From the NCBI GenBank assembly GCA_934087065.1, contig CAKOIS010000002.1, forward strand, positions 11,880 to 75,879: a stretch of 64,000 nucleotides of DNA, given 5' to 3'. The translations under genes were made by a program, and so were the position numbers. How positions within the stretch are numbered: the stretch's first letter is position 1; every line of letters starts with the position of its first letter. The DNA is from an uncultured Bacilli bacterium (GTDB taxonomy: Bacteria > Bacillota_I > Bacilli_A > RF39 > UBA660). Under the pieces are notes generated by a model. The model saw only the letters and a program-made list of their open reading frames with translations, was not told the origin of the DNA and ran no database searches. Shown piece by piece: positions 2,712-62,857 of this stretch.

Positions 2712-3327
2712 TCTATATAAAGAAGGCGTTACACTAGTCGCTGGTGTAGACGAAGTAGGACGTGGGCCTTTAATCGGTCCAGTAGTCGCATGTGCTTGTA
2801 TTCTTCCTGTAAACTTTTACCATAAAGACATCAAAGACAGTAAAAAGCTAAGTGAAAAGAAAAGAGAAGAAATGTACAAAATTATAAAAGAAAATGCTTT
2901 AGCTATAGGGCTTGGCATAGTAAGTGAGAAAGTAATAGATGAAATAAACATATATGAAGCAACAAAAATAGCTATGAAAGAAGCAATAGAAAATCTGAAT
3001 ATCACTCCTGAACATATATTAATAGACGCTATGAAACTCGAATTAAATATCCCGTCAACTTCAATAATAAAAGGGGACGCTAAAAGTGAGTCAATTGCAG
3101 CTGCTAGTATAATTGCTAAAGTAACAAGAGACCATATGCTAGATGAGATGGACAAAGAGTATCCAATGTATGACTTAAAAAATAATAAAGGATATGGTAC
3201 TAAAAAACATTTAGAAGCACTACAGACTTATGGCCCATGCAAATATCACCGAGTAAGTTATTCGCCTGTAAGAAATGCATTAAATGAAAAAAACACAAAA
3301 ACAATTGAAAATAAAGTAAATGTATAG
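2692..3327 (+). CDS. rnhB: ribonuclease HII
   Basis: VAGVDEVGRGPLIGPVVACA N-terminal motif and DSKKLS. Overlaps the dxs 3' end by 20 nt. Confidence 0.9.
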   Translation: MLEYENNLYKEGVTLVAGVDEVGRGPLIGPVVACACILPVNFYHKDIKDSKKLSEKKREEMYKIIKENALAIGLGIVSEKVIDEINIYEATKIAMKEAIENLNITPEHILIDAMKLELNIPSTSIIKGDAKSESIAAASIIAKVTRDHMLDEMDKEYPMYDLKNNKGYGTKKHLEALQTYGPCKYHRVSYSPVRNALNEKNTKTIENKVNV

Positions 3328-4322: not shown

Positions 4323-4359
4323 AATCTCACTTTTTATATTGACAATACCTACTAAAAAA

Positions 4360-4567
4360 TGATAACATTATCTTGTAATAGTGAGAGTAACAAAAATTCT
4401 CAAGTTTTAAAAAACAAAGGAGAGATACACATGAAAACAAAATACACTTTAAAACCTAGTATGGGGGGGGGTTATTTAACTAGCGTAAATAACTATAGTT
4501 TTCATGTGCAATTAAATGGATAGAATAATTCTACCCATTTTTTCGTGTGTAAGAAAAGAGGTAAGGT
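4360..4567 (+). promoter_or_regulatory. conserved leader, copy 1: palindrome gataacattatc, uORF (4431-4484) containing a G9 tract (4463-4471), and a hairpin plus T-run (about 4505-4535)
   Basis: About 80% nucleotide identity with the leaders at 23205-23405, 33855-34049 and 45105-45302. The G-tract length differs between copies. Confidence 0.6.
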
Positions 4568-4810
4568 ATGACAAATGAAGAATTAAAGAAAATTGTTGGA
4601 AGAAACGTAAAAAAGTATAGGCTTATATATAATGCGTACAACAAAGAAAAACTTACTCAGAAAGACTTAGCTGAAAAGATAGGTGCAAAGACACCTCTTA
4701 TAGGTGCTTTAGAAAGCGAGAACAACAACATGGGAATAAGTATATATAACTTATATATGATAAGTAAAGTACTAAATGTACCAATAGAAAAGTTTTTTGA
4801 GGAGGAATAA
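4568..4810 (+). CDS. XRE-family helix-turn-helix transcriptional regulator (80 aa)
   Basis: HTH_3-like segment LTQKDLAEKIGAKTPLIGALE. Lies between the conserved leader and paralog 1, and only in this copy. Confidence 0.55.
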   Translation: MTNEELKKIVGRNVKKYRLIYNAYNKEKLTQKDLAEKIGAKTPLIGALESENNNMGISIYNLYMISKVLNVPIEKFFEEE

Positions 4811-4815
4811 AGTAT

Positions 4816-7308
4816 ATGAAGAATAAAAAAGGAATGATATATGGAGTACTATTAATGACTTGTTTAGTAATAGGTTTATCTTATGGAGCATTTATATTTA
4901 GTACAGATAAATATAGAAGTAGTGAATTATTAATAAGTAAGTTAAACTATAGTATAGATATACAAGAAGACGGAAGTAATAAGTCTACAATTAATGGAAG
5001 TTCAGTAACAGTACCAGCTAGTACTAAAGTATATTTAAATATTACTTTAACAAGTGTAAATGAAATAGATAGTAAATATACTTTAGCATATAAAACTAGC
5101 ACAAACGCTAAAGTAGAGTACTCAGATAGAACACCATGGAACACACAAGGAGTAATAAAAGGAATAGACAGTAACACTTATTCAAAAAAGATAAGAGTAG
5201 TAATAGATAACACAAATATCTCAACACCATCTACAGTAAACTTTCAAGTATATGGTGGATACTCATTTAACTCATATGCAAATATAGAACTAACTGATGG
5301 ATATGTATCAGTAAGTGGACCATACACAGAAGTTGCAACAAACATAGGAAATAGACTAGTAGATATAATAGAAAGTGATACAAGTTGTTTAACAAGTAAT
5401 TCTAACACTTGCTTGTATGGTGGAGAGAACATTAAAAACTATGTACAATACCCAGAAGACAATGACAAAACAAAGAACTTATGGAGAATAATAGGAAGTT
5501 ATCAAATAGAAGATCAAACACTACCAAAACTAATAAGTCAAAGTACAAGTAGTACTAGTACTTCAACACTAACAACAGACTTAACAAGTTTCTATAACAC
5601 ATTAGAAGATAAAGAAGTATTAGTACAACAAACAAATAAATTTAATTGTTTTACTAATACTTGTGTAGAAAGCACTTACAACAATATTGGCTTACTAACA
5701 GACTATGAATATAATCAAATAGGTGGAGTAAACTCATACTTAGCAACTACAGAAAAATATTACATAAATAGTTCTAGCGGAATAAAAGAAGTAACATCAA
5801 GTGGGATAACAAACCCAAGTAATACAAGTGGACTAAAACCAACAATATACTTACAAACTGGAGTACAAGTAACAGGAAGTGGAACAGTGAGTGACCCATA
5901 CATCATAAGTCCAGCAAGTGATATAAATTTAGTTGCTTATACATTAAATGGACAAGCAACAGATAAAAATTATGCAGATTTACTTAAAACAAATGTAGTA
6001 GATAAAGTAACATGTAAAAACGGAACAACAGCAACATGGGACAATACAGATTTTTCAATAAAATTAAAGAATATACATACACCAGACTATTGTACAATTG
6101 ATTTTGGAGATGGATACAGTGTTAGTTTAACAGCAACAAATGGTACAGTAAGTCCATCAAATATAACTGTAGGATATAATGGAAGTGCAAGTTTTACTGT
6201 AACACCTAACAGTGGATATAAACTAGAACTTGAAACAAACACATGTGGCGGAACACTATCAGGAAGTACATATACAATAAGTAATGTAACAAGTGCAAAA
6301 AGTTGTAGTATAACATTCAAGTCTTCTACACAAACATTATATGCTAAACTGCTTGCTGATAAATCAACAGTATTAACAAGAACAGACTTTAGTAAAGTTT
6401 TAACAAATGACAATACAAACACATTATATACAGGAACAGAGAATGGAACAACAGTATATTATTTTGCAGGGAATGCAACAGATAATTGGGTAAAGTTTGG
6501 AAAGAATGCAACTAATCAAGACTTATACTGGAGAATAATAAGAACAAACTCAGATGGTGGAGTAAGACTACTATACCATGGAACAAGTACTACAGCAACA
6601 GATGCGGTTATAAACACAAGTACAGCATTTAATACAACATATAATAACCCAATGTATGTAGGATATATGTATGGAACAAGCGGTTCATTAGTAAATAATA
6701 GAACAAATACAAATAATAGTACAATAAAAGGAATAATAGATACATGGTATGAAAATAATCTAAAAACTAACTATACAAAATACTTAAGTACAACAGCAGT
6801 ATATTGCAATGATAGAAGTAACCCAGCAGGTGGATATAACACTGGAGGTACAACATTCTACTATGGTGGATATACACGATTAATAACAAATAAAACACCA
6901 ACATATGACTGTACAGACACTAACGATAAATTCACAGTAGACACAAGTACAGGAAACGGGAAACTAACATACCCAATAGCATTAATGACAGCAGACGAAG
7001 TAAGTTTTGCAGGTGGACTAGCGGGAACAAACGCACCAACATGGTATTATTATAATAGTGCAAAGGGTAGCTCAACAGGTGACACCAGGTGGTGGCTGTT
7101 GTCTCCTTACTATTGGAGTAGCGGCCACGCTTACGTGTTTCGCGTGTACGGTTCGTCCTACCCTGGCCGCTTGAACTACAACAACGTCAACTACACCGCT
7201 CTTGGTGTTCGTCCGGCAGTTTCTCTCAAATCTTGTATCAAGACAAGTGGAGGAGATGGCTCGGCAAACGCACCATACACAATAGAAGAAAGTACAAGTG
7301 GGTGCTAA
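4816..7308 (+). CDS. secreted/surface protein, paralog 1 (830 aa). N-terminal signal anchor and S/T-rich linker. The C-terminal half is homologous to paralogs 2-4 and ends in an adenine-depleted hypervariable domain (WWLLSP...GVRPAVSLKSC)
   Basis: RBS gaggagg. The C-terminal ~330 aa align with ORFs 23406, 34050 and 45303. Terminal CLec/DUF1566-like pattern (YW..S...AY.V.F.V.G....GVRP). Confidence 0.8.
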   Translation: MKNKKGMIYGVLLMTCLVIGLSYGAFIFSTDKYRSSELLISKLNYSIDIQEDGSNKSTINGSSVTVPASTKVYLNITLTSVNEIDSKYTLAYKTSTNAKVEYSDRTPWNTQGVIKGIDSNTYSKKIRVVIDNTNISTPSTVNFQVYGGYSFNSYANIELTDGYVSVSGPYTEVATNIGNRLVDIIESDTSCLTSNSNTCLYGGENIKNYVQYPEDNDKTKNLWRIIGSYQIEDQTLPKLISQSTSSTSTSTLTTDLTSFYNTLEDKEVLVQQTNKFNCFTNTCVESTYNNIGLLTDYEYNQIGGVNSYLATTEKYYINSSSGIKEVTSSGITNPSNTSGLKPTIYLQTGVQVTGSGTVSDPYIISPASDINLVAYTLNGQATDKNYADLLKTNVVDKVTCKNGTTATWDNTDFSIKLKNIHTPDYCTIDFGDGYSVSLTATNGTVSPSNITVGYNGSASFTVTPNSGYKLELETNTCGGTLSGSTYTISNVTSAKSCSITFKSSTQTLYAKLLADKSTVLTRTDFSKVLTNDNTNTLYTGTENGTTVYYFAGNATDNWVKFGKNATNQDLYWRIIRTNSDGGVRLLYHGTSTTATDAVINTSTAFNTTYNNPMYVGYMYGTSGSLVNNRTNTNNSTIKGIIDTWYENNLKTNYTKYLSTTAVYCNDRSNPAGGYNTGGTTFYYGGYTRLITNKTPTYDCTDTNDKFTVDTSTGNGKLTYPIALMTADEVSFAGGLAGTNAPTWYYYNSAKGSSTGDTRWWLLSPYYWSSGHAYVFRVYGSSYPGRLNYNNVNYTALGVRPAVSLKSCIKTSGGDGSANAPYTIEESTSGC
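7090..7227 (+). other. putative DGR variable region (VR) of paralog 1
   Basis: A-depleted, GC-rich stretch in an AT-rich gene. The codons that vary against paralogs 2-4 are NNC (tac, cac, cgc, aac, acc). Conserved scaffold codons lack A. A conserved 3' boundary (gtttctctcaaatcttgtgtcaagacaag) contains a small inverted repeat. Confidence 0.55.
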
Positions 7309-7492: not shown

Positions 7493-8845
7493 CTAAAACT
7501 CTACTGTTTCTACATTGCTTTGTATTTGATTATTTATTTGTTGTACTTGCTGTGTTACTTGTGGAGTAGGTTGCTGCTGTGGTGTTTCTTTTATACTGTG
7601 GGCTTTTTGTGCCATCTTTAGGTTTGCAACTAAGTTATCGTCTTTGTAAGCTGTCATATCATTTTCTAAGTCAACTATCTTTAGTATTTCTTCAAATGAT
7701 GTTTCTCCTTCAACAACTTTGTTTAACCCATCTTGTAATAGTGTAACAACTTCTCCAGTATAAACTAAATCTCTTAGAACGTGTTTAGGAGCATTATTAG
7801 TAATTGCGTCTTTTATTTTTTCATTCATTACTAGTACTTCTAGTATTGCAAGTCTTCCTCTATAACCATGGTTACATCTAGGACAGCCTTCTTTATTTGC
7901 AACATACATTTCATTTATATCTTTTCCTATAACTGTTTTAAATACTTGTTTTTCATATTCTGTAGTTTGTCTTTTAATCATACAGTTAGGACATAATTTT
8001 CTAGCAAGTCTTTGACTTATTATTCCTTCAAGTGAGCTACCAAGTAAGTATCTTTCTACATCCATATCAGTAAGTCTTTCAATAGTATTAAGTGAGTTAT
8101 TAGTGTGTAGTGTACTAAGAACTAAGTGTCCAGTAATTGAAGCACGTACGGCAATTCTAGCTGTTTCATCATCACGAATTTCTCCGATCATTATTATATT
8201 AGGGTCTTGTCTTAAAATACTTCTTAAAATAGTAGCAAATGTAAGACCAATTTCAGTTTGAGTTTGAACTTGGTTAATACCAGCAATATCCATTTCAACT
8301 GGGTCTTCAACTGTTATGATGTTAACTTCTTCAGTATTAAGCTTTTGAAGAATAGAGTACAAAGTAGTACTTTTACCAGTTCCAGTAGCACCAGTAACTA
8401 AGATAATTCCATTAGGTATTCTAATTAATTTATTAATCTTTTCCATCGCGTCTTTACTAAAGCCTAAGTTATCAAGTCCAGCTAAACTCATAGAGTAGTC
8501 TAGAATTCTTATAACTATTTTTTCTGCATTATTTGTAGGTAGTGTACTTACACGCAAATCAAGTAGTCTATCTCCAATTTTACTCTTAATCGCACCATCT
8601 TGAGGAAGACGCGTTTCCATTATATTCATACCGGCTATCATTTTGATACGACTTATCATATTTCTTTTATATTTACTAGGGACTATACTGTAATCACTTA
8701 ATATACCATCAATTCTAAAACGAATTTTCAAAGAGTCTTTAGATGGGTCAAAGTGAATATCACTTGCGCCCTTATTAACTGCGTCTATTATAATTTCATT
8801 TGCTATTTCAACAATAGGTAATTTTTCAAAATTAAATTCTTTCAT
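7493..8845 (-). CDS. pilB: type IV pilus assembly ATPase (PilB/GspE family)
   Basis: Walker A GATGTGKSTT. GspE-type Asp/His boxes. Tetracysteine C-x-x-C...C-x-x-C motif. 450 aa. Confidence 0.85.
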   Translation of the reverse strand: MKEFNFEKLPIVEIANEIIIDAVNKGASDIHFDPSKDSLKIRFRIDGILSDYSIVPSKYKRNMISRIKMIAGMNIMETRLPQDGAIKSKIGDRLLDLRVSTLPTNNAEKIVIRILDYSMSLAGLDNLGFSKDAMEKINKLIRIPNGIILVTGATGTGKSTTLYSILQKLNTEEVNIITVEDPVEMDIAGINQVQTQTEIGLTFATILRSILRQDPNIIMIGEIRDDETARIAVRASITGHLVLSTLHTNNSLNTIERLTDMDVERYLLGSSLEGIISQRLARKLCPNCMIKRQTTEYEKQVFKTVIGKDINEMYVANKEGCPRCNHGYRGRLAILEVLVMNEKIKDAITNNAPKHVLRDLVYTGEVVTLLQDGLNKVVEGETSFEEILKIVDLENDMTAYKDDNLVANLKMAQKAHSIKETPQQQPTPQVTQQVQQINNQIQSNVETVEF

Positions 8846-9091: not shown

Positions 9092-9454
9092 ATGAAAAAT
9101 AAAGGTTTTACTTTAGTTGAAGTAATTGCAGTTATTGCTTTAATTGCAGCTTTGGTTTTACTAGTAGTCCCAAAACTAGCAGACATGGATACGAAAAGCA
9201 AAGAAAAGATGTATAATGCAAAAGTGACGGAAATTTTATCAGGTGCTTATAAGTATGGAACAGATAATATTGATAACTTAACAAATGAATGCTTAGATGT
9301 AACAGTTGGTACTTTACTAAAACTAGGATATGTTAAATCAGATGATAATTCTGGTTTCTATGTGACTAATCCTAAAAATAATGAGTCAATGAATAACTTA
9401 ATTATATGTGTTAAATATGAAAATGGGAAAGTAGTAACTAATGTTAGTAATTGA
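9092..9454 (+). CDS. type IV prepilin-like protein (class III signal, KGFTLVEV)
   Basis: N-terminus MKNKGFTLVEVIAVIALIA has a G-F-T-L-x-E prepilin peptidase site followed by a hydrophobic helix. 120 aa. Confidence 0.75.
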   Translation: MKNKGFTLVEVIAVIALIAALVLLVVPKLADMDTKSKEKMYNAKVTEILSGAYKYGTDNIDNLTNECLDVTVGTLLKLGYVKSDDNSGFYVTNPKNNESMNNLIICVKYENGKVVTNVSN

Positions 9455-10316
9455 TAACTTTTTAAGATATTTGAAAGAATATAAAAACTATAGCGATTTA
9501 ACCATAAAGAGTTATAGCATAGACTTAAGGGAGTTTAGTGAGTACGTAAAAAAAGATTTAACTAGTGTTACTAAGGAAGATATTAAAAAGTATTTAAATT
9601 ATTTATTTGTTAAAGAAGACAAAAATAAAACAGTAAGTAGGAAGATTAGTACTTTAAAAAGCTTTTATAAATTTTTAAAGGAAAACGATGTTATTACTAT
9701 TAACCCAGCATCAAATATAAAATATCCTAAAAAAGAAAAGTCTTTACCAAAGTTTATTCCTTATAATGAGTTAGAAAGTATGATTAATGTAAGTAAAGAA
9801 GGAAAGTTTGGGGTAAGAAATAACCTTATAATTGAGTTATTATATGCAACAGGTACTAGAGTTAGTGAACTTGTTAGTATTAAATTAAGTGATATTGATT
9901 ATGATAATAAAAGTATTAGGATATTAGGAAAAGGAAGCTATGAGAGAACTGTTTTTTATGGAGACTATGCATGCGAATTACTTGACATTTATATAAATGG
10001 TTTAAGAAAAGAACTATTAGGTGGTAAACAAAATGTCTACTTGTTACTTAATAAAAATGGTGATAATATAACTACTAGAGGTATAGCAAAGATAATAGAT
10101 AATATTATAAAGGAAACCTCTATTAAAGTAAAAGTTAGTCCACATACTTTAAGACATACTTTTGCAACACATTTACTTGATAATGGATGTGATTTAAGAA
10201 GTGTACAAGAACTTCTTGGACATAAGAATATCAATACAACAGAAGTGTATACTCATGTTACAAGTGAGAGGTTAAAGGATGTATATTTTAAAAGTCATCC
10301 AAGAGGGAGGTTATAA
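9441..10316 (+). CDS. tyrosine site-specific recombinase, XerC/XerD family
   Basis: C-terminal catalytic box HTLRHTFATHLL...LGHKNINTTEVYTHV with R-H-R-Y residues. 291 aa. Start overlaps the pilin gene by 14 nt. Confidence 0.8.
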   Translation: MLVIDNFLRYLKEYKNYSDLTIKSYSIDLREFSEYVKKDLTSVTKEDIKKYLNYLFVKEDKNKTVSRKISTLKSFYKFLKENDVITINPASNIKYPKKEKSLPKFIPYNELESMINVSKEGKFGVRNNLIIELLYATGTRVSELVSIKLSDIDYDNKSIRILGKGSYERTVFYGDYACELLDIYINGLRKELLGGKQNVYLLLNKNGDNITTRGIAKIIDNIIKETSIKVKVSPHTLRHTFATHLLDNGCDLRSVQELLGHKNINTTEVYTHVTSERLKDVYFKSHPRGRL

Positions 10317-19696: not shown

Positions 19697-20194
19697 ATGA
19701 AAAAGAAAGGATTTACACTAATTGAGGTTATTGCAGTAATTGCGCTTGTATCACTTTTACTACTTTTGGTAGTGCCAAATATAACTGAAAGTTATAAGAA
19801 AAGTCAAAAGAAAATATTCTATGATAACGTACTAGGTATATATAACACTGCTACACAGTCATTCTTATTAGAAGATACTAAAGTTAATAACTTTTGTCAT
19901 TCTGGTACTAAATTAAAAGCTGACTTAGGAGAAGATGTAGAATATAATGTTATATTAGACGACTTTGGGCAAGTTACTAGTTTAGCTGTAAGTAATGGAA
20001 GATTTTACTATTCTAAATCTAATTCAAGTGGAGTAAGTAGGTCAGACATTTCTATAGACGACATCCAAGAAAGCAAAATTAATATTAATTGTGACGGGAC
20101 AATAAGTTATCAAAATAACTGTATAATAACTGATTCAAATAGGTCTTGTCAAATATACGGTTTCACATTTTTTAGAAAAAATGCTACGATTTAG
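19697..20194 (+). CDS. type IV prepilin-like protein
   Basis: N-terminus MKKKGFTLIEVIAVIALVSLLLL with G-F-T-L-I-E. 165 aa. Cys pair near the C-terminus. Confidence 0.7.
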   Translation: MKKKGFTLIEVIAVIALVSLLLLLVVPNITESYKKSQKKIFYDNVLGIYNTATQSFLLEDTKVNNFCHSGTKLKADLGEDVEYNVILDDFGQVTSLAVSNGRFYYSKSNSSGVSRSDISIDDIQESKININCDGTISYQNNCIITDSNRSCQIYGFTFFRKNATI

Positions 20195-23002: not shown

Positions 23003-23209
23003 ATGAATTTAACATATCAAAACAAAACTCTATATATAGATCTAGTAGGAGATGTGAACATAACAGAAGTAACAAAGAAAGTCACAAGTATTAGTGATAC
23101 ATACAAAATAAATAACTTAGTAGTTAATACAGATGAGGCATTCATTACTGACTACAAAAAAGCAAAACTAAAAAAAATAATAAGTAACACTCTTGACAAC
23201 CCTAATTAA
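23003..23209 (+). CDS. hypothetical small protein (68 aa)
   Basis: RBS agaggaaaa. No recognisable motif. Confidence 0.25.
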   Translation: MNLTYQNKTLYIDLVGDVNITEVTKKVTSISDTYKINNLVVNTDEAFITDYKKAKLKKIISNTLDNPN

Positions 23210-23405
23210 AAAATGATAAGATTATCTTGTAATAAAGATAGGAAGTGAAGCACATGGAAGTTAATTCTTTAGTACAAAACAAAGTACAAATTGGGGGGGG
23301 GTTATTTAAATAGTATAAATAACTATAGTTTTTCATGTGCAATTATATGGATAGAATAAGTCTACCCATTTTTTCGTGTCTTAAAAAGAAAGGAGTGCAT
23401 TAAAT
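23205..23405 (+). promoter_or_regulatory. conserved leader, copy 2: palindrome gataagattatc, uORF from ATG 23255, G10 tract 23293-23302, hairpin plus T-run about 23346-23372
   Basis: Homologous to the leaders at 4360, 33855 and 45105. Confidence 0.6.
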
Positions 23406-24905
23406 ATGCAAAGGAAACAATTAACACTTGTAATAGTAAGCTTACTAGTAGTAGTACTAAGTGTATCACTTGCTTACTTTACAGCACAAATAATAGGAAA
23501 GGGAAAAGATGTAAGTGTAACAAGCGCAAACCTACAAATAGTATTTACAGATAGTGATGGAGCTTTAACAGAAACTGATATAGAACCTGGCTGGACTAAA
23601 ACTAAAACATTTACTATTAAAAATGATACTAAGATAGAATACAAATATAATATAGTAATAAAAGACTTATTAAATACTTTTGTAACTAATGGATACTTAA
23701 AGTACAAGATAACTAGTACAAATAATGGATATAATATGACTGAGTTTAAAGATATTCCAAAGTCTAGTGCACCTAAAGATACAATATTAGCTTATAGTGT
23801 AGTAATACCTAATGGAGTAACACAAAGTTATACAATTGAATTTAAGTATGCAAACGATGAAAGTGTAGACCAAAGTGATGATATGGGTAAGAAACTAAGT
23901 GGAACACTATTTATAACTGAGGAAACAGAAGATCCAAACAAAACACTATATAATCAATTACTTGTAGACAAATCAAAAGTATTAACAAGAACAGACTTTA
24001 GTAAAGTTTTAATAGATAATAATACAAACACATTATATACTTCTACTGAAGATAGTAAAACAGTATATTATTTTGCAGGGAATGCAACAGATAACTGGGT
24101 AAAGTTTGGAAAGAATGCAAGTAATCAAGACTTGTACTGGAGAATAATAAGAACAAACTCAGATGGTAGTGTAAGACTTCTTTACCACGGAACAAGTACT
24201 ACAGCAACAGATGCATATATTGGTGAATCAGCATTTAATAATAGTAGTTATACTAATATAGCATATGTAAGTTATATGTACGGAAGTACAGGAAGTATAG
24301 CAAATGCTAGAACTAACCAAAAAAACTCTAGTACAATAAAAGACAAAATAGATAACTGGTATAAAATCAACTTAGAAGCAAAAGGTTATACAAAATACTT
24401 AAGTACAACAGCAGTATATTGTAATGATAGAACATATGCAGTATCTGGAGATACATACTTTGGAGCATACACAAGACTAATAACAAATAAAACACCAAGT
24501 TATGACTGTGCAACAACAGAAGACAAATTCACAGTAGACACAAGTACAGGTAACGGAAAACTAACATATCCAATAGCATTAATGACAGCAGACGAAGTAA
24601 GTTTTGCAGGTGGACGATATGGTACAAATGCACCAACATGGTATTATTATAATAGTGCAAATGGTAGTTCTACAGAATCAAATGCTTGGTGGTTGTTGTC
24701 TTCTCGCAATTGGAATGGCGGCGACGCTATTGTGTTCTTCGTGTATGGTTCGTCCGAACAACCTGGCAATTTGAGCAACAGTAGGGTTGACGGCACTTAC
24801 GGTGTGCGTCCAGCCTTATCACTAAAATCTTGTGTAAAATATGCAAGTGGAGATGGCTCAGCAAGTGACCCATACACAATAAAAGAAACTACAAATGGAT
24901 GCTAA
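23406..24905 (+). CDS. secreted/surface protein, paralog 2 (499 aa) with C-terminal A-depleted hypervariable domain
   Basis: N-terminal signal anchor MQRKQLTLVIVSLLVVVLSVSLA. First ~170 aa nearly identical to paralogs 3 and 4. C-terminus WWLLSS...GVRPALSLKSC. Confidence 0.85.
   Translation: MQRKQLTLVIVSLLVVVLSVSLAYFTAQIIGKGKDVSVTSANLQIVFTDSDGALTETDIEPGWTKTKTFTIKNDTKIEYKYNIVIKDLLNTFVTNGYLKYKITSTNNGYNMTEFKDIPKSSAPKDTILAYSVVIPNGVTQSYTIEFKYANDESVDQSDDMGKKLSGTLFITEETEDPNKTLYNQLLVDKSKVLTRTDFSKVLIDNNTNTLYTSTEDSKTVYYFAGNATDNWVKFGKNASNQDLYWRIIRTNSDGSVRLLYHGTSTTATDAYIGESAFNNSSYTNIAYVSYMYGSTGSIANARTNQKNSSTIKDKIDNWYKINLEAKGYTKYLSTTAVYCNDRTYAVSGDTYFGAYTRLITNKTPSYDCATTEDKFTVDTSTGNGKLTYPIALMTADEVSFAGGRYGTNAPTWYYYNSANGSSTESNAWWLLSSRNWNGGDAIVFFVYGSSEQPGNLSNSRVDGTYGVRPALSLKSCVKYASGDGSASDPYTIKETTNGC
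24687..24824 (+). other. putative DGR variable region (VR) of paralog 2
   Basis: A-depleted. Variable NNC/NNT codons (cgc, aat, ggc, gac, att, ttc, agc, aac, agt, gac, ggc, act, tac). One extra codon relative to copies 1 and 3. Confidence 0.5.
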
Positions 24906-31217: not shown

Positions 31218-33011
31218 ATGAAAAAGAATAAAAAGAACGTTCATAAAGTTTCATTATTTACTAATTTGTCCTATGTTCTTAAACAAATGGCAACTGAATT
31301 ATATAAAACAGCTAAGTTTGCTGGGTTAGGCTTATTTAAAGTTTTTGATTTTATAATGACTAACTTAATTACAATAGTAACATATATTTTCTATGCGATA
31401 TATTATATTAGTATGTATATTGGAAAATTTACTTATACTTTAGGTAAATTCATGTATTATAAAGTGTTTAAACCTATTGGTTTTGAAGTATATTATTTAT
31501 TTAAAGCAATGTACTTGGGTGCTTACAGGGTAGGTAAAATATTATTTTATGAAATTCCTTTATTTATATTTAACTCATTTAGTGACTTTTTTGACTTGAT
31601 AAGAAAAAAATTAAAACTATTAAAAGAAAGACTAATGTATTTCTTTAAACATACACCTAATACAGTTAAAAATTACTTCTTAGATAGATTTAACAATATT
31701 AGTATAGTAAAACACTATAGGAATAAGAAAGAAAGAGAATTAGAAGTTCTATTAATAGATAAGTTTGGTAAAGATGCTGAAAGGACCAGCAAAAAACAGA
31801 CTTATAAATACTTAGTAAGAAATGAAGAAGGTAAACTAATTACTGGATATTTTGCAGCTTTATCTAGGTTAGATGTGCATTCATACTTACTTGATGAAGG
31901 ATATGAAGTATACGAGATTAAAACAAACTGGTGGATAAATTTTGCACATGGAGAAAGTAAGTACTTAGAAAAGCAAATGAAAGCAAAAGACTTAATTTTC
32001 TGGTTAGCCCAGTTAAGTACTTATTTAAAAGCAGGAATACCACTTACTGATTCAGTTAAAATACTTGCTGAACAAGATAAAAGAAAAAAATATAAAAAGA
32101 TATATGACTCAGTTATATATGAGTTATCTATGGGTGAAGCATTTAGTGATGCTTTAAGAAAACAAGGAAGTGTGTTTCCACCTTTACTAATTAATATGAT
32201 TAAAGGTGCAGAACTAATAGGAGACTTAGAAAACACACTTGACGATATGAGTAAATACTATGAAGAAAGAGAATCAACTAGAAAACAATTAATAGGTTCA
32301 CTTGTATACCCAGCTGTAATACTAGTGTTCTCATTAGTTGTAGTAATATTTATGGTAGTATATATAATACCTCAATTTGAAGGAATATACTCAAGCTTAG
32401 GTGCAGAGTTAAACCCAATAGTATTATTCTTACTTAAATTTAGTGCATTCTTAAAAACTAATTATATGTTACTAATTGCAGGATTTATATTAGTAGTAGT
32501 ACTATTAACATTTATGTATAAAAAAGTTAAAGCTTTTAGAACACTAGTACAATATATAGCAATGCATCTACCATTAGTAGGGAAACTAATTATATATAAT
32601 GAAATGCACTTATTTGCAAAAACATTTAGTGTACTTAATAAAAATAATGTACTTTTAACTGATAGTATAGATATACTTAGTAAAATAACTAGTAATGAAT
32701 TTTATAAAATGATAATGTATGACACAATTAGTAACTTATTAAGAGGAGACAAAATAAGTTTATCATTTAAAGACAACTGGGCTGTTCCAACACTAGCTTA
32801 TTACATGATATCAACTGGTGAAGCAACAGGTGAATTAAGTGAAATGTTAGAAAAAGTAAGCGTTTATTATGAACAAGAACAAAGAAACTTGGGTAACTCA
32901 TTAAAAACGCTAATTGAACCAATACTTATGATTATATTAGCTGTTATAGTTGGTGGAATAATGATTTCTATAATCGTGCCAATGTATGATATAACAAAGA
33001 ACATCTTGTAG
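31218..33011 (+). CDS. pilC: type IV pilus inner-membrane platform protein (PilC/GspF family) with a ~190-aa N-terminal extension
   Basis: Two GspF-type domains. The canonical PilC N-terminus (TYKYLVRNEEGKLITGYFAALS) begins around aa 196. Strong RBS agaggtgaagg at 31218. Confidence 0.8.
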   Translation: MKKNKKNVHKVSLFTNLSYVLKQMATELYKTAKFAGLGLFKVFDFIMTNLITIVTYIFYAIYYISMYIGKFTYTLGKFMYYKVFKPIGFEVYYLFKAMYLGAYRVGKILFYEIPLFIFNSFSDFFDLIRKKLKLLKERLMYFFKHTPNTVKNYFLDRFNNISIVKHYRNKKERELEVLLIDKFGKDAERTSKKQTYKYLVRNEEGKLITGYFAALSRLDVHSYLLDEGYEVYEIKTNWWINFAHGESKYLEKQMKAKDLIFWLAQLSTYLKAGIPLTDSVKILAEQDKRKKYKKIYDSVIYELSMGEAFSDALRKQGSVFPPLLINMIKGAELIGDLENTLDDMSKYYEERESTRKQLIGSLVYPAVILVFSLVVVIFMVVYIIPQFEGIYSSLGAELNPIVLFLLKFSAFLKTNYMLLIAGFILVVVLLTFMYKKVKAFRTLVQYIAMHLPLVGKLIIYNEMHLFAKTFSVLNKNNVLLTDSIDILSKITSNEFYKMIMYDTISNLLRGDKISLSFKDNWAVPTLAYYMISTGEATGELSEMLEKVSVYYEQEQRNLGNSLKTLIEPILMIILAVIVGGIMISIIVPMYDITKNIL

Positions 33012-33022
33012 GGGGAAACAAA

Positions 33023-33760
33023 ATGATTTACGTATTTATATTTATAACTGGTGTATGCCTAGGAAGTTTTTATGCTTGTATAGGCTACAGAATTCCAAAC
33101 AAAATTAGTACAGTAAAACCTAGTAGTTTTTGTCCAAACTGTAAAAAAAGTTTAAAGTGGTATATGAATATACCACTTCTAAGCTATATATTTTTAAAAG
33201 GAAAATGCGCTTACTGTAAAGAAAAGATAAGTATAACTTACTTTCTAATAGAACTAACTACAGGAATACTTTTCTTAATAAGCTACATGATATTTGGATT
33301 AAACTATCAATTAATAGTAGTATTAACTCTAATAAGTGCCTTAATGGTTAGTTTAGTAACAGACTTAAAATATTACTACATTTCAGATAGAGTAATAGTA
33401 GTTTCTTCTATTTTAGTAGCGTTTACTTACTTAAAATTCTTAGGAGTTAACTCATTTTTAAGCCATATACTATCAGGCGCTTTGATGTTTATATTAATGT
33501 ATTTACTAAAAATAATAACTACAAAAATATTTAAAAAAGAGTCACTAGGTGACGGGGACATCAAACTAATGATACTTATTGGTTTAACACTAGGAGTGTT
33601 TAACTCGTTTATTTCTTTATTTATATCAAGCGTAACAGCGCTTATATATACAATACTATTTATAAAGAAGAAAGATGCACTTATCCCATTTGGACCTTTC
33701 CTTTTAATAGGTGCGATAGTTACATACATTCTAGTTTTTTATCAAATAACTATAATATAG
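33023..33760 (+). CDS. pilD: prepilin peptidase (A24 family)
   Basis: N-terminal CPNC...CAYC zinc-binding module. Catalytic-region motif GDGDIKLM. Polytopic membrane protein. Confidence 0.85.
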   Translation: MIYVFIFITGVCLGSFYACIGYRIPNKISTVKPSSFCPNCKKSLKWYMNIPLLSYIFLKGKCAYCKEKISITYFLIELTTGILFLISYMIFGLNYQLIVVLTLISALMVSLVTDLKYYYISDRVIVVSSILVAFTYLKFLGVNSFLSHILSGALMFILMYLLKIITTKIFKKESLGDGDIKLMILIGLTLGVFNSFISLFISSVTALIYTILFIKKKDALIPFGPFLLIGAIVTYILVFYQITII

Positions 33761-33854
33761 TCTCATTTCGTAAAAACTTGCAAATGCAGGAAAGTTCGGA
33801 ATGAGTTTTTATAAAATATGTAAAACATGTGAAAAAAACTTGAAATATAGTGCT

Positions 33855-34049
33855 TTTTTTGATAAGATTATCTTGTAATAAAGATAGGAAGTGAAGTACA
33901 TGAAAATTAACTCTTTAGTACAAAATAAAGTACAAAATGGGGGGGGGTTATTTAACTAGCATAAATAACTATAGTTTTTCATGTGCAATTAAATGGATAG
34001 AATAAGTCTATCCATTTTTCGTGTCTTAAAAAGAAAGGAGAGCATTAAT
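33855..34049 (+). promoter_or_regulatory. conserved leader, copy 3: palindrome gataagattatc, uORF from ATG 33900, G9 tract 33939-33947, perfect 11-bp hairpin plus T-run about 33991-34026
   Basis: Homologous to the other three leaders. The hairpin aaatggataga-ataag-tctatccattt is followed by tttcgtg. Confidence 0.6.
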
Positions 34050-35531
34050 ATGCAACGAAAACAATTAACACTTGTAATAGTAAGCTTACTTGTAGTAGTA
34101 CTAAGTGTATCACTAGCTTACTTTACAGCACAAATAATAGGAAAGGGGAAAACTGTAGACGTTAGTAGTGCTAACTTACAAATAGTATTTACAGATAGTG
34201 ATGGAGCTTTAACAGAAACTGATATAGAACCAGGCTGGAGTGCAACTAAAACATTTACTATTAAAAATGATACTAAGACAGAATACAAATATAATATAGT
34301 AATAAAAGACTTATTAAATACTTTTGTAACAGAAGGATATTTACAATACAAAATAACTAGTACAAACGATGGATATAATATGACTGAGTTTAAAGATATT
34401 CCAAAGTCTAGTATAGCAACAGATACAATACTAGCTTATAGTGTAGTAATACCTAATGGAGTAACACAAAGTTACACAATTGAATTTAAGTATGCAAACG
34501 ATGAAAGTGTAGACCAAAGTGATGATATGGGTAAGAAACTAAGTGGAACATTATTTATAACTGAAGGAACAGAAGATCCAAATAAAACACTATATAATCA
34601 ATTACTTGTAGACAAATCAACAGTATTAACAAGAACAGACTTTAGTAAAGTTTTAACAGATAATAATACAAACACATTATATACTTCTACTGAAGACAGT
34701 AAAACAGTATATTATTTTGCAGGGAATGCAACAGATAACTGGGTAAAGTTTGGAAAGAATGAAAGTAATCAAGATTTATACTGGAGAATAATAAGAACAA
34801 ACTCAGATGGTGGAGTAAGACTACTATATCATGGCACAAGTACTACAGCAACAGACGCATATATAGGAATATCAAAATTTAATACAGAATATAATGATCC
34901 AATGTATGTAGGATATATGTATGGAACAAGCGGATCACTAGTAAACAACAGAACAAATATAAGTGATAGTACAATAAAAACAACACTAGATAATTGGTAT
35001 AAAGATAATTTGAATACAAATTATGGAAAATACTTAAGTACAACAGCAGTATATTGTAACGATAGAAGTACATCAAATGATACATCCTTTGGAGCATTCA
35101 CAAGACTAAAAACAAATAAAACACCAAGTTATGACTGTGCAGCAACAGAAGACAAATTCACAGTAGATAATAGTACAGGCAACGGTAAACTAACATACCC
35201 AATAGCCTTAATGACAGCAGACGAAGTAAGTTTTGCAGGTGGACTATGGGCAACAAATGCTTCTACTTGGTATTATTATAATAGTGCAAACGGAAGCTCA
35301 ACAGGCTCAAACTGGTGGTGGTTGTTGTCTCCTCGCCTTTGGATTGGCGGCTACGCTAGCGTGTTCAACGTGAACGGTTCGTCCGGCCCTGGCCGCTTGT
35401 ACTTCGACGACGTCAACAACTCTTACGGTGTGCGTCCGTCAGTTTCTCTCAAATCTTGTGTCAAGACAAGTGGTGGAGATGGCTCAGCAAGCACACCATA
35501 CACAATAGAAGAAACTTCAAGTGGATGCTAA
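34050..35531 (+). CDS. secreted/surface protein, paralog 3 (493 aa; start moved from 33993 to the conserved MQRKQ ATG)
   Basis: RBS aaaggagag plus ATG 34050 is the position conserved in paralogs 2 and 4. C-terminus WWLLSP...GVRPSVSLKSC. Confidence 0.85.
   Translation: MQRKQLTLVIVSLLVVVLSVSLAYFTAQIIGKGKTVDVSSANLQIVFTDSDGALTETDIEPGWSATKTFTIKNDTKTEYKYNIVIKDLLNTFVTEGYLQYKITSTNDGYNMTEFKDIPKSSIATDTILAYSVVIPNGVTQSYTIEFKYANDESVDQSDDMGKKLSGTLFITEGTEDPNKTLYNQLLVDKSTVLTRTDFSKVLTDNNTNTLYTSTEDSKTVYYFAGNATDNWVKFGKNESNQDLYWRIIRTNSDGGVRLLYHGTSTTATDAYIGISKFNTEYNDPMYVGYMYGTSGSLVNNRTNISDSTIKTTLDNWYKDNLNTNYGKYLSTTAVYCNDRSTSNDTSFGAFTRLKTNKTPSYDCAATEDKFTVDNSTGNGKLTYPIALMTADEVSFAGGLWATNASTWYYYNSANGSSTGSNWWWLLSPRLWIGGYASVFNVNGSSGPGRLYFDDVNNSYGVRPSVSLKSCVKTSGGDGSASTPYTIEETSSGC
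35313..35450 (+). other. putative DGR variable region (VR) of paralog 3
   Basis: 17 A in about 138 nt within an AT-rich genome. All but one A lie in NNC codons (att, tac, agc, aac, aac, tac, gac, gac, aac, aac, tac). Scaffold codons (tgg tgg ttg ttg tct cct ... ggt tcg tcc ... cct ggc cgc ttg ... ggt gtg cgt ccg) are A-free. Confidence 0.55.
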
Positions 35532-40896: not shown

Positions 40897-41004
40897 TTAT
40901 TTGTTTCTCAAGGCGTATTCACTTGAAAAACCGCTCAGAATAGGTTGTAAAAGGTTAAACCTTACCTCAATGGCGCGTCTTATTATTTAAAGGAGGTATG
41001 AAAA

Positions 41005-44691: not shown

Positions 44692-45084
44692 ATGGAAATT
44701 ATAGAAACTAAAATACAAAAAATATACGTATCAAATAATTGTGTAACTTATGCTTTTATGGTAGACTGCAATAAAGGTTACGCTTTCAGTGTAGTAAACT
44801 ATTCAAGAGAATGTGACTTCATGTCAAATGCTTTTGGTGCATCAAAGAAATTAAAACTAGGTAAAACAGCATACATTACACTAACTAAAGATAACAAAAT
44901 ACTTAGTATATCAAACGAACTTGGTGAGACAATTATCACAACTTTAACTTACGATTATGCTTATGGTACAGTAGATACTAAGAACAGAGATTACATAATA
45001 AATGAACTTGGTACAACTATGGAAGAATATACTTTAGATGTAGCAAAAACTGTTAAAGGAAAAAGTTTAACAAAAACTATGTAA
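44692..45084 (+). CDS. hypothetical protein (130 aa)
   Basis: ORF with RBS ggatggga. No motif recognised. Confidence 0.35.
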   Translation: MEIIETKIQKIYVSNNCVTYAFMVDCNKGYAFSVVNYSRECDFMSNAFGASKKLKLGKTAYITLTKDNKILSISNELGETIITTLTYDYAYGTVDTKNRDYIINELGTTMEEYTLDVAKTVKGKSLTKTM

Positions 45085-45104
45085 AGGTACTTGAAAAGAG
45101 TATC

Positions 45105-45302
45105 TTTTTTTGATATCATTAATTATGTAATAAAGATAGGAAGTGAAGTACATGAAAATTAACTCTTTAGTACAAAATAAAGTACAATATGGGGGGGGTT
45201 ATTTAAATAGTATAAATAACTATAGTTTTTCATGTGCAATTAAATGGATAGAATAAGTCTATCCATTTTTTCGTGTCTTAAAAAGAAAGGAGAGCATTAA
45301 AT
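45105..45302 (+). promoter_or_regulatory. conserved leader, copy 4: uORF from ATG 45152, G8 tract 45191-45198, perfect hairpin plus T-run about 45239-45272
   Basis: Homologous to the other leaders. With 8 G the uORF stays in frame through the left arm of the hairpin and stops at the TAA in its loop. Confidence 0.6.
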
Positions 45303-46931
45303 ATGCAACGAAAACAATTAACACTTGTAATAGTAAGCTTACTTGTAGTAGTACTAACTGTATCACTAGCTTACTTTACCGTACAAATAATAGGAAAGGG
45401 GAAATCTGTAGACGTAACAAGTGCTAACTTACAAATAGTATTCACAGATAGTGATGGAGCTTTAACAGAAACTGATATAGAACCTGGCTGGACTAAAACT
45501 AAAACATTTACTATTAAAAATGATACTAAGATAGAATACAAATATAATATAGTAATAAAAGACTTATTAAATACTTTTGTAACTAATGGATACTTAAAGT
45601 ACAAGATAACTAGTACAAATAATGGATATAATATGACTGAGTTTAAAGATATTCCAAAGTCTAGTGCACCTAAAGATACAATATTAGCTTATAGTGTAGT
45701 AATACCTAATGGAGTAACACAAAGTTATACAATTGAATTTAAGTATGCAAACGATGAAAGTGTAGACCAAAGTGATGATATGGGTAAGAAACTAAGTGGA
45801 ACTCTTTATATAGAGAAAGGGACTTTACCAACGTTAAGTGAGAAACTTTTTGCTGATAACCCAACAATACAAACAAGAAGTTCATTTGATGCAGTATTTA
45901 CTGAAACAAACACAGGAACTTTATATAAAGCAACAGAAAGTATAGCAGGTAGTCCTGCAAAAGATGTGTATTACTTTGCAGGAGATGCAAAGAATAACTG
46001 GGTTAATTTTGGAAAATATCAAACAGATTATGTTGTCTATAGAGGTTATTCTGAAACAGGCAGTAAATACATAGATTATTTGACAATGGATGCATGTACT
46101 AGTGCCTCAAATTATAATATTAATTGTACTGAACAAATATATTGGAATAAGGGTAATGATATATACTGGAGAATAGTAAGAACAAACTACGATGGAAGTG
46201 TAAAACTTCTATATGCGGGAAATAGCCCTGATACAACAAGTGGATACATAGGAACAAGTGCATTCAATAGCACAAATAATGATTCAATGTATGTAGGATA
46301 TAAATATGGTACAAGTGGGACTCTAGCAAATAACAGATTAAATACAAATGATAGTACAATAAAAACTTTTATAGATAACTGGTATAGTAATAACTTAACA
46401 AGTTATACAAAATATATAAGTACAGAAGCAGTATATTGTAATGACAGAAAAGCACTAAGCTATAGTATAAGTAGTTCTTTTGATTACTATGTACAAACAA
46501 GACTAGGTGCAGGAAATCCAACATATGATTGTGAAGATAGTAGTGATGCATTTTCAGGAAGTAATAGTGAAGCAAAATTAACACACCCAATAGGACTAAT
46601 GACAGCAGATGAAATAACATATGCAGGTGGTAAAGATACTACAGGCTTAACAAGTCCATATGCATGGTATTATCTAAACAGTGCTGGGGAAAGTATAACC
46701 GGAACACAATGGTGGTGGTCCTTGTCACCTCGACTCTGGAATGGTGTCATTTCGTACGTTTGGTTCGTTTTTGGTTCTTCTATTCCGGGTGCCCTTTTGA
46801 GCACCGCCGATGTGAACTTTGAGAATGGTGTTCGCCCCGCCATTTCTCTCAAATCTTGTGTCAAGACAAGTGGTGGAGATGGTTCAGCTAGTAACCCATA
46901 CACAATACAAGAAACAGCAAGTGGTTGTTAA
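45303..46931 (+). CDS. secreted/surface protein, paralog 4 (542 aa), with a more divergent C-terminal half and an A-depleted hypervariable terminal domain
   Basis: The N-terminal 170 aa are nearly identical to paralogs 2 and 3. The C-terminal domain WWWSLSP...GVRPAISLKSC is related but more diverged. Confidence 0.85.
   Translation: MQRKQLTLVIVSLLVVVLTVSLAYFTVQIIGKGKSVDVTSANLQIVFTDSDGALTETDIEPGWTKTKTFTIKNDTKIEYKYNIVIKDLLNTFVTNGYLKYKITSTNNGYNMTEFKDIPKSSAPKDTILAYSVVIPNGVTQSYTIEFKYANDESVDQSDDMGKKLSGTLYIEKGTLPTLSEKLFADNPTIQTRSSFDAVFTETNTGTLYKATESIAGSPAKDVYYFAGDAKNNWVNFGKYQTDYVVYRGYSETGSKYIDYLTMDACTSASNYNINCTEQIYWNKGNDIYWRIVRTNYDGSVKLLYAGNSPDTTSGYIGTSAFNSTNNDSMYVGYKYGTSGTLANNRLNTNDSTIKTFIDNWYSNNLTSYTKYISTEAVYCNDRKALSYSISSSFDYYVQTRLGAGNPTYDCEDSSDAFSGSNSEAKLTHPIGLMTADEITYAGGKDTTGLTSPYAWYYLNSAGESITGTQWWWSLSPRLWNGVISYVWFVFGSSIPGALLSTADVNFENGVRPAISLKSCVKTSGGDGSASNPYTIQETASGC
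46710..46850 (+). other. putative DGR-type variable region (VR) of paralog 4, a divergent class
   Basis: About 12% A. The conserved 3' boundary tttctctcaaatcttgtgtcaagacaagtggtggagatgg is shared with copies 1 and 3. Confidence 0.45.
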
Positions 46932-46958
46932 GATACTTGAAAAAGTATCTTTTTTCTT
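46932..46958 (+). terminator. rho-independent terminator (agatactt gaaa aagtatcttttttc)
   Basis: 8-bp stem plus a T-run directly after the paralog 4 stop. Confidence 0.6.
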
Positions 46959-62247: not shown

Positions 62248-62412
62248 ATGAAAAAAGGGTTTGTATCAATGGCTACTGTGTATACATTTTTAATAGTATT
62301 CTTATTAATATTATCGTCTATATTATCTAAATATGTAATGAGAAATAGACTAATTAATAGTCTTAATGAAACAGTAAAAAATGAACTTAATGAGAGGTAT
62401 AACAGTGAATAA
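62248..62412 (+). CDS. small pseudopilin-like membrane protein (54 aa; not in the supplied ORF track)
   Basis: RBS ataggagtgag plus ATG. N-terminus MKKGFVSMATVYTFLIVFLL. First gene of a pseudopilin cluster. Confidence 0.3.
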   Translation: MKKGFVSMATVYTFLIVFLLILSSILSKYVMRNRLINSLNETVKNELNERYNSE

Positions 62413-62857
62413 GAATGGTTTTGTATTTATAGAAACAATAATAGTAATTGTCTTACTTAGTGTTGGTATTGCTAGTATGTACTCTTTAATGACTAATATA
62501 ACAACTGATATAAAATCAAGAAAATACTTTGATAATATAAGTGATTTATATAAAACTAATATTATAAGAGATAATGTAAGTAAAAATTTAACTGGTACAA
62601 CATACTTAGAGATTACAAAAGATAACTGTACTTCATACATGAGTAGTACATGTTATAGTTTACTTACTGACTTAGAAGTAGAAAGAGTAGTAGTTAACTT
62701 TGCAAGTTTAGATAACATAATAAATAGTGATACAACCATCCCTAACAGTATGAATGAATACCTAAAAACAATTAATACATATAAAACAAACAAATACATA
62801 ATAGTAAACTACAAATACAATAACAAAAACTATTATGCTTCCCTAGAGGTGAAATAA
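62381..62857 (+). CDS. prepilin-type pseudopilin (likely true start GTG 62405: VNKNGFVFIETIIVIVLL)
   Basis: G-F-V-F-I-E-T class III signal. RBS gagagg before the GTG. Confidence 0.6.
   Translation: MNLMRGITVNKNGFVFIETIIVIVLLSVGIASMYSLMTNITTDIKSRKYFDNISDLYKTNIIRDNVSKNLTGTTYLEITKDNCTSYMSSTCYSLLTDLEVERVVVNFASLDNIINSDTTIPNSMNEYLKTINTYKTNKYIIVNYKYNNKNYYASLEVK

Follow-up and report, generated by a model that had tools for sequence, protein, structure and literature searches.

A recombining paralog family with DGR-type variable regions and poly-G leaders on the chromosome of an uncultured gut Bacilli bacterium

A 64,000-nt stretch of contig CAKOIS010000002.1 (assembly GCA_934087065.1, positions 11,880 to 75,879; hereafter the window), from an uncultured Bacilli bacterium of the RF39 lineage, encodes four paralogous proteins, c1 to c4, which were identified by tblastn with the c1 open reading frame (ORF) as the query and are all located on the + strand. 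The c1 gene (4816-7308, 830 aa) had been flagged in an earlier note, which described the family as a mosaic of shared and swapped modules. The other copies are c2 (23406-24905, 499 aa), c3 (34050-35531, 493 aa counted from its MQRKQ start, database protein P0112), and c4 (45303-46931, 542 aa). Our sequence analysis indicates that each paralog is an independent expression unit composed of a promoter and leader, an N-terminal (N) module, a linker, and a C-terminal (C) module, and that modules and sub-module patches have been exchanged by homologous recombination. Three known variation mechanisms appear to act on this one family, namely recombination, writing by a diversity-generating retroelement (DGR), and slippage of a poly-G tract, each layer being already known. 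Our high confidence applies to this explanation as a whole, i.e., a recombining paralog family with a DGR-written variable region (VR) and a poly-G leader.

The modular organization was first apparent from nucleotide alignments. Copies c2, c3, and c4 have in common ~190 nt of upstream leader and their first ~167 codons (93-96% nucleotide identity), in line with the near-identical start previously noted for these copies, while c1, c2, and c3 have in common their last ~325 codons, from TLY(A/N)(K/Q)LL onward (77-83% nucleotide identity), which agrees with the C-terminal ~330 aa described before. The divergence that had been proposed for copies 2 to 4 after ~170 aa is real for c4, where identity to c2 drops to 55-69% in the next 20-codon windows, but not for c2 and c3, which retain 83% nucleotide identity through the C-terminal part to the gene end. 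Copy 4 had also been credited with a different middle and C-terminal region. Instead, its C-terminal part is homologous to the other copies throughout (49% amino acid and 65-69% nucleotide identity) and represents a divergent subtype of the C module with a ~43-aa insertion at ~46017-46145. The unique N-terminal half attributed to c1 (4816-6330) is borne out: these ~505 aa have no counterpart in the other copies and comprise a signal anchor, a beta-rich domain, the S/T linker SQSTSSTSTSTLTT, and then two weaker candidate domains, ahead of the shared C module (6331-7308, from the nucleotide alignment to c2 and c3). In c2, the same alignment places the N module at 23406-23905, the linker at ~23906-23940, and the C module at 23941-24905; the N module of c4 spans 45303-45802. 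The units exchanged between copies are hence best read as two domains plus the leader, and the family architecture as leader, N module, linker, and C module, with no separate middle module of the kind that "swapped middle regions" would require.

The junction between these modules, as seen from c2 and c4, is sharp. The longest identical runs include a 359-nt run between c2 (23547-23905) and c4 (45444-45802), which stops within the KLSGT codons, at about codon 167, immediately before the drop in c2-c4 identity given above. Given the 3.6-7.4% divergence among N modules, the probability of such a run arising by chance is 2e-6 to 1e-12, and we interpret it as a recent gene-conversion tract ending at a domain boundary. 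The nucleotide-level comparison that the earlier note had suggested, with gradual divergence as the alternative outcome, therefore returned an abrupt break. A mosaic is also seen inside the c4 N module, which is c3-like 5' of 45443 and c2-identical over 45444-45802. Breakpoints had been said to coincide in all copies; both do fall within the short linker between the two predicted domains, but they are 36 nt apart, as c1 homology begins at c1 6332 (= c2 23941) and the c4 junction lies at c2 23905. On either side of the C module are stretches of complete identity, with ~75 nt at the N-module end identical among c2, c3, and c4, and ~40 nt located 3' of the VR identical between c3 and c4. These identical anchors, which bracket the C module, represent natural substrates for homologous exchange.

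Comparison with related strains, another check that the earlier note had recommended, extended this picture from paralogs to alleles. Identity matrices and recombination tests covered eight alleles, some of the window and some of other strains (loci retrieved from the latter are designated by L numbers). N- and C-module identities were incongruent among allele pairs: c2 and c4 are 96.4% identical in the N module and 64.5% in the C module, L037 and L038 show 84.2% and 97.9%, respectively, and c4 and L042 show 96.8% and 100% (all at the nucleotide level). A homoplasy test (local-incompatibility permutation) was significant (P<0.001), and four-gamete minima of 26 and 69 recombination events were obtained for the N module (501 nt) and the C module, respectively. 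Individual patches could also be traced. In L030, a strain with an identical Dxs protein, the c1 ortholog is nearly identical to c1 except over c1 6432-6512, where it carries c2/c3-type sequence, which we read as a conversion tract from a paralog. Likewise, a patch of the c4 locus at ~45380-45425 resembles c3 in the window and c2 in L042.

A single chromosomal site, between asnS and hrcA, was found to hold alternative module combinations in different strains that encode an identical HrcA protein. This site lacks a paralog in L036 and L039, harbors 497-aa alleles with the same C module and differing N-module patches in L037 and L038, a 514-aa allele in L040 and L041, and the 542-aa c4 type in L042. 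A direct repeat of 26-27 nt that forms a terminator hairpin (AAGGTACTTGAAAAGAGTATCTTTTTT) marks both ends of the c4 insert, with the left copy at 45084-45110 (+ strand), overlapping the c4 -35 region, and the right copy at 46930-46955 (+ strand), directly after the c4 stop codon. The empty site in L036 (3351-3381) retains a single copy of this repeat, and the whole c4 unit is thus present or absent between strains. A UBA11492 locus (L007) resembled a c4-type allele with an insertion but was rejected, because the apparent extra sequence consists of Ns in the scaffold. Taken together, the alleles point to two forms of exchange, namely intrachromosomal gene conversion between paralogs, and allelic replacement or insertion-deletion between strains. 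Mechanistically, this exchange would proceed by RecA-type gene conversion or allelic replacement, guided by the near-identical leader, the ~75-nt N-module end, and the ~40-nt post-VR stretch. Junctions would concentrate in the linker as a result of selection, which would let recombinants through only if the reading frame and both domains remain intact. The mosaic finding by itself is mechanistically ordinary.

The second layer of variation concerns the C-terminal tip, which the earlier note had called a VR module and which does correspond to a DGR variable region with a cognate template repeat (TR) in related contigs. Each copy includes a 131-134-nt segment with an adenine fraction of 0.08-0.22, vs 0.39-0.43 for the whole gene, and a GC content of 0.43-0.60, in which invariant codons are devoid of A and variable codons are of the form NNC. 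A TR with AAC at the variable codons was predicted from this scaffold, then searched for, and recovered in 11 human-gut metagenome contigs, so that the TR used for VR comparisons comes from related strains and not from this contig. The cleanest DGR-written copy is c3 (35319-35449, + strand), which has no internal indel relative to the TR and differs from it at 20 of 36 adenine sites and at only one of 95 other sites. The c1 VR, including its TR-homologous 3' end GGTGTTCGTCCGGCAGTTTCTCT (7093-7226, + strand; adenine fraction 0.12-0.22 vs 0.43 for the whole gene), differs at 17 of 36 adenine sites and four of 95 other sites, and includes a 3-nt insertion. Because these mismatches are adenine-specific, the c3 and c1 VRs were clearly written by a chromosomal DGR (TR, bAvd, and reverse transcriptase (RT)) of the recovered type. 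The motif GGTGTGCGTCCGnCAnTTTCTCT is common to the TR, c1, c3, and c4 (degenerate in c2), and TR and VR diverge 3' of it; this conserved VR 3' end is a candidate for a site of the initiation of mutagenic homing (IMH) type. Across 118 homologs, the VR is the entropy peak, alongside several other variable patches in the C module.

A second VR scaffold (…VWxVFGS…) was observed in c4-type alleles, in the window at 46716-46849 (+ strand; adenine fraction 0.08-0.15), in L037 at ~3130-3285, in L043 at ~1181-1345, and also in L038. This different scaffold implies a putative second TR or DGR, or else fossil VRs. No TR for it was found in any retrieved locus.

In related strains, the recovered TR is part of a chromosomal cassette with the order target gene, ~270-nt spacer, TR, 133-aa ORF, optional 118-aa ORF, 114-aa bAvd-like ORF, and 371-aa RT. 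This cassette is complete in L021, L024, L026, and L028 (e.g., L028 766-3361), where it is located between whiA-side and folD-side genes, and its RT is split into ORFs of 81 aa and 226-243 aa in L023, L025, and L029. The RT matches RVT_1 (E=1.2e-14), the bAvd-like ORF was detected below the Pfam cut-off (E=1.6e-6), and the 133-aa ORF between the TR and the bAvd-like gene has a MutS domain I match above it (E=3.8e-6). Targets adjacent to the cassette vary in architecture between strains (492, 481, 634, and 1115 aa). Between L023 and L025, which have a common cassette background, the VRs of the adjacent targets differ at TR adenine positions only. A scan of viral contigs with the VR scaffold pattern yielded a single match, by chance.

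The third layer is found upstream of the genes, in a conserved leader that includes a poly-G tract followed by a terminator-like hairpin. For c1, the promoter and leader (4339-4567, + strand) comprise a -10 element TGATAACAT at 4360-4368, a G9 tract at 4463-4471, and the hairpin with its T-run at 4517-4543. For c2 (23193-23405, + strand), the promoter consists of TTGACA, 18 nt, and TAAGAT with an upstream TG, with G9 at 23293-23301 and the hairpin at 23348-23374; for c3 (33822-34049, + strand), G9 is at 33939-33947 and the hairpin at 33994-34019, and the mechanically predicted c3 ORF starts at 33993, i.e., within the leader. The c4 leader (45073-45302, + strand) includes a -10 element TGATATCAT at 45111-45119, G8 at 45191-45198, and the hairpin at 45245-45271. 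In the conserved leader, an 11-bp inverted repeat (GCACATGAAAA / TTTTCATGTGC) flanks the poly-G region, which in c1 corresponds to ACACATGAAA at 4427-4436 and TTTTCATGTGC at 4499-4509 (+ strand), and the hairpin itself (TGGATAGAATAAGTCTACCCA) is followed by T6. A terminator scan did not call this hairpin, which has too few G-C pairs, and an Rfam scan of the leaders identified no known RNA family.

The four poly-G tracts (G8-G9) are the only G or C runs of at least 7 in the 64 kb, and their length changes faster than any other part of these loci. Among near-identical strains, tract lengths were 9, 9, 10, and 9 at the c1 locus, 9, 8, and 10 at the c2 locus with the coding sequence unchanged, and 8, 9, and 8 at the c4 locus with a nucleotide-identical gene, and the c4 locus of L042 has 10. 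The tract is 12 long in L027, a c1-like locus beside a DGR cassette. These leaders accordingly display the hallmark of a contingency locus, a homopolymer of at least 8 in a control or 5' coding region that is length-polymorphic among near-identical genomes. The tract sits in a short leader ORF. Translated in one frame, this ORF yields a conserved peptide of 34 aa that terminates in …INNYSFSCAIKWIE and has its stop codon within the loop of the hairpin; translation in the other frames ends after 17-19 aa. The long-frame peptide has the consensus …GGGYLxSINNYSFSCAIKWIE*; the c4 leader contains a 34-aa ORF in this long frame, and a UBA11492 allele without a poly-G tract retains it as well. This arrangement suggests that poly-G length may act as a slipped-strand on/off switch of expression. 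In frame, the ribosome would enter the terminator-like hairpin, with the stop in its loop, and let transcription read through into the main gene, while out of frame the ribosome would halt ~46 nt earlier and the hairpin would form. We propose only tentatively, and with appreciable doubt, that the leader may be an undescribed phase-variable attenuator, stacked with DGR writing and inter-paralog conversion such that three independent diversity generators would operate on one adhesin-like family.

Several other processes could in principle generate the patterns described above. If the N module were simply under purifying selection and the C module evolving fast after old duplications, without any recombination, identity would also break at the domain boundary, as it does, and the C module does have variable patches besides the VR. 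Protein-level selection cannot, however, erase all synonymous differences over 359 nt beside a region of 55-65% identity, nor does a difference in rate fit the opposite pattern of L037 and L038 (84% in the N module, 98% in the C module) or the switch of the c4 N module from c3-like to c2-identical, with significant homoplasy, and we thus regard this scenario as very unlikely. Chimeric joining of ~500-nt repeats at 93-100% identity during assembly would be another source of mosaics, and this family does disturb assemblers, with contigs of several samples breaking inside these genes (L043-L045, L046-L052). Yet two further assemblies, built from different samples with different assemblers, contain c4 without a single nucleotide change and in the same surroundings, one of them on a contig of 420 kb with ~134x coverage. 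The c2 protein and its locus were also seen again in other Hadza assemblies, and c1 orthologs in L030 and L031. The identity of c4 in two independent assemblies excludes assembly chimerism, and we regard an artefact as highly improbable.

The earlier note had spoken of cassette-like recombination, and here recombination between members is upheld while programmed cassettes are not. In silent-cassette antigenic variation (pilE/pilS, vlsE), promoter-less partial donors feed one expression locus. Silent-donor conversion of this type, or shuffling by a site-specific recombinase at defined sites, would be consistent with the short identical anchors that flank the C module, with the direct repeat that bounds the c4 insert, and with a tyrosine recombinase gene located near c1 (9441-10316). 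However, none of the four copies is silent, as all have a promoter, leader, ribosome-binding site, start codon, and intact ORF; the copies are directly oriented and 10-20 kb apart, no partial copies exist in the window, and conversion tracts begin and end at many positions. The recombinase gene is positioned as a housekeeping XerC/D-type gene would be and shows no association with c2, c3, or c4, and we judge a programmed system to be unlikely. The notion that the DGR alone made all differences among copies draws on the VR being the region of highest entropy in the family, and on the adenine-specific VR-TR differences in c3 and c1. Such mutagenesis is nevertheless limited to the 131-134-nt VR and to template adenines, which leaves the N-module patches, the linker junction, the 43-aa insertion, and the presence or absence of whole genes unexplained, and a DGR acting by itself is extremely improbable.

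A number of observations weigh against our preferred explanation of a recombining family with DGR-written VRs and poly-G leaders, or at least against parts of it. The c2 VR (24690-24823, + strand) is partly decayed, with a degenerate 3' end (CCAGCCTTATCACT) and differences from the TR at 17 of 36 adenine sites and 11 of 95 other sites, and the c4 VR is not cognate to the recovered TR (22 of 35 adenine sites, 26 of 96 other sites). No TR or RT was found in the window, using blastn with 7-nt words and a YxDD motif scan, or within 10 kb past either end. A scan of one genome per species recovered VRs in UBA11492 and CAG:628, along with chance matches, but no TR, and neither of these two assemblies yielded a TR or RT. 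The VRs of c1, c2, and c4 are also unchanged among the near-identical strains compared (c1 VR identical in L030 and L031, c4 VR 100% identical in L042, L044, and L045), hence no ongoing DGR writing was seen there. With regard to recombination, the c1 junction has no homologous partner upstream and may represent an old domain fusion rather than a recent crossover, and some of the allelic diversity at single loci could derive from horizontal exchange between strains and not from intragenomic conversion. Finally, the C modules of the window copies score slightly under the gathering cut-off of the Pfam family to which we relate them (DUF6273, PF19789; 23.5 bits), although many close homologs carry a precomputed match, and the AlphaFold model of c2 is of moderate confidence (pLDDT 69).

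At the protein level, the N module corresponds to a signal anchor and a beta-sandwich (~167 aa), and the C module (~320 aa) is probably of the DUF6273 type, a C-type-lectin-like DGR target domain for which the VR lies at the C-terminal end in Faecalibacterium prophage targets (PMC10743442, PMC11792537). The AlphaFold model of c2 pairs a beta-sandwich N domain with a C domain of mixed alpha/beta fold. Foldseek searches against the PDB returned nothing beyond weak generic beta-sandwich matches, and assignment of the N module to the TasA/camelysin (SipW-dependent) family was rejected, with neither the family profiles nor the TasA fold recovered. Within the unique half of c1, a weak InlB-B-repeat-like match (Pfam Flg_new_2) was detected, and aa 289-368 may be a VR-less DUF6273-like remnant (hhalign against the C-module end, probability 44%). 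An apparent homology between the c1 N-terminal half and the N module was discarded, as the hhalign signal was circular (c1 being in the profile) and disappeared with a c1-free profile.

The family extends far beyond this genome. In a set of 5.8 billion proteins, we obtained more than 7600 matches, most of which fall into 90%-identity clusters with one or a few members. At 50% identity, the C module spans 5417 clusters; the proteins that contain it are 250-4905 aa long and have up to 11 matched stretches. Proteins of ~815 aa with an N+C+C architecture were found as well. The family is very large and hyperdiverse, and its members are probably secreted or anchored in the membrane and act as surface-exposed binders.

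The genomic setting of the four paralogs is chromosomal. The window has a low GC content (~28%) and encodes housekeeping genes including dxs, polA, gyrB/gyrA, dnaK/dnaJ, polC, and lon. Flanks of the c2 locus are closely related to those of the GTDB representative metagenome-assembled genome "Bacillota bacterium UBA11492" (98% protein identity for MurT, 91% for PolA), the host probably belongs to the same species as that genome, "Clostridium sp. CAG:628" is a relative, and the exact c2 protein was found on contigs of Hadza human-gut metagenomes. Between the shared leader and c1 lies an 80-aa XRE-type helix-turn-helix gene (4568-4810, + strand; Pfam HTH_3, E=1.6e-6, above cut-off), which is limited to the c1-type locus, with the same layout in L027, L030, and L031. 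This gene and c1 would be co-transcribed, and the same pair is located 5' of the 1115-aa c1-like DGR-adjacent target in L027. Type IV pilus or competence-pseudopilus genes are dispersed over the window (7493-8845 on the - strand, 9092-9454, 19697-20194, 31218-33760, and 62381-62857) and comprise a T2SSE ATPase, T2SSF, a prepilin peptidase, and several N_methyl pilin-like ORFs, some of which adjoin paralogs: c1 is convergent with the T2SSE ATPase gene, and c3 is directly 3' of pilC-like and prepilin-peptidase genes. Unrelated to the paralogs, an L21 ribosomal-protein leader was identified with Rfam at 40919-40990 (37.9 bits, barely above the gathering score). In some strains, though not in the window, a Schlafen/AlbA_2-HATPase_c_4 gene is located beside a gatD-like gene near the c2 locus (L056 2435-3760, L057 1394-2329).

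Each layer of this system has known counterparts. The opa genes of Neisseria and the poly-G genes of Campylobacter and Helicobacter are contingency-locus surface-protein families that combine slipped-strand phase variation with conversion between paralogs. The window family resembles them in its dispersed complete paralogs, each putatively switchable on its own, in a homopolymer whose length varies among otherwise identical strains, and in mosaic alleles from member-member and strain-strain recombination. Unlike in opa-type loci, the poly-G tract here is found in an upstream leader ORF before a terminator-like hairpin, and not in a promoter spacer or main ORF, and templated variation by a DGR comes in as a third layer. 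For cwpV of Clostridioides difficile, formation of an intrinsic terminator depends on a 5'-leader switch, which a recombinase operates by DNA inversion. The window leaders similarly place a control element in the transcribed leader, 5' of a terminator-like hairpin and before a surface-protein gene, but the switch would be a poly-G frameshift in a leader peptide and not a DNA inversion.

DGRs are usually described as a cassette with one or a few adjacent targets, which change at template adenines only, and DGRs with several remote targets exist as well, e.g., in Treponema denticola and Legionella. In contrast to prophage DGR targets, the window targets are chromosomal, are not phage tail genes, and are far from any cassette. 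A close likeness is to targets with a C-terminal C-type-lectin-like DUF6273 domain, as in the targets of Faecalibacterium prophage DGRs and in the "tentaclins" (PMC11792537, PMC10743442). Features in common with these include a scaffold poor in adenine whose variable codons are NNC, located at the end of the C-terminal domain, an AAC-rich cognate TR with a bAvd-like gene and RT beside it, TR homology that runs on into a short conserved stretch 3' of the VR, and multiple paralogous targets per genome. The family nevertheless differs from them in that the cassette is known here from related strains only and has a small MutS-domain-I-like ORF, the VR-like segment of c4 mismatches the recovered TR, each target has its own poly-G leader, and targets exchange modules by recombination. 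A DUF6273 domain is also present at the N-terminus of the IgA peptidase of Thomasclavelia ramosa (PDB 9qa6; PMC12402451). The latter is an M64 metallopeptidase anchored by sortase, for which no VR has been reported, and the window proteins do not include a peptidase domain.

In the literature searched, we found no paper that connects either homopolymer phase variation or gene conversion between paralogs to DGR targets. The DGR targets described here belong to a dispersed, recombining paralog family in a common uncultured human-gut bacterium, and suggest that templated hypermutation, homologous recombination, and slipped-strand switching can cooperate on one set of surface-binding proteins. The net effect would be combinatorial variation in which binding proteins are made and what they bind. 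As a practical warning, these loci break metagenome assemblies, and the corresponding protein clusters are almost all singletons. If the combined reading is true, the rate at which binding changes, whether to phage, host glycans, or antibodies, would need to be estimated differently, and if the attenuator reading is true as well, every DGR target would be individually switchable in a gut commensal.

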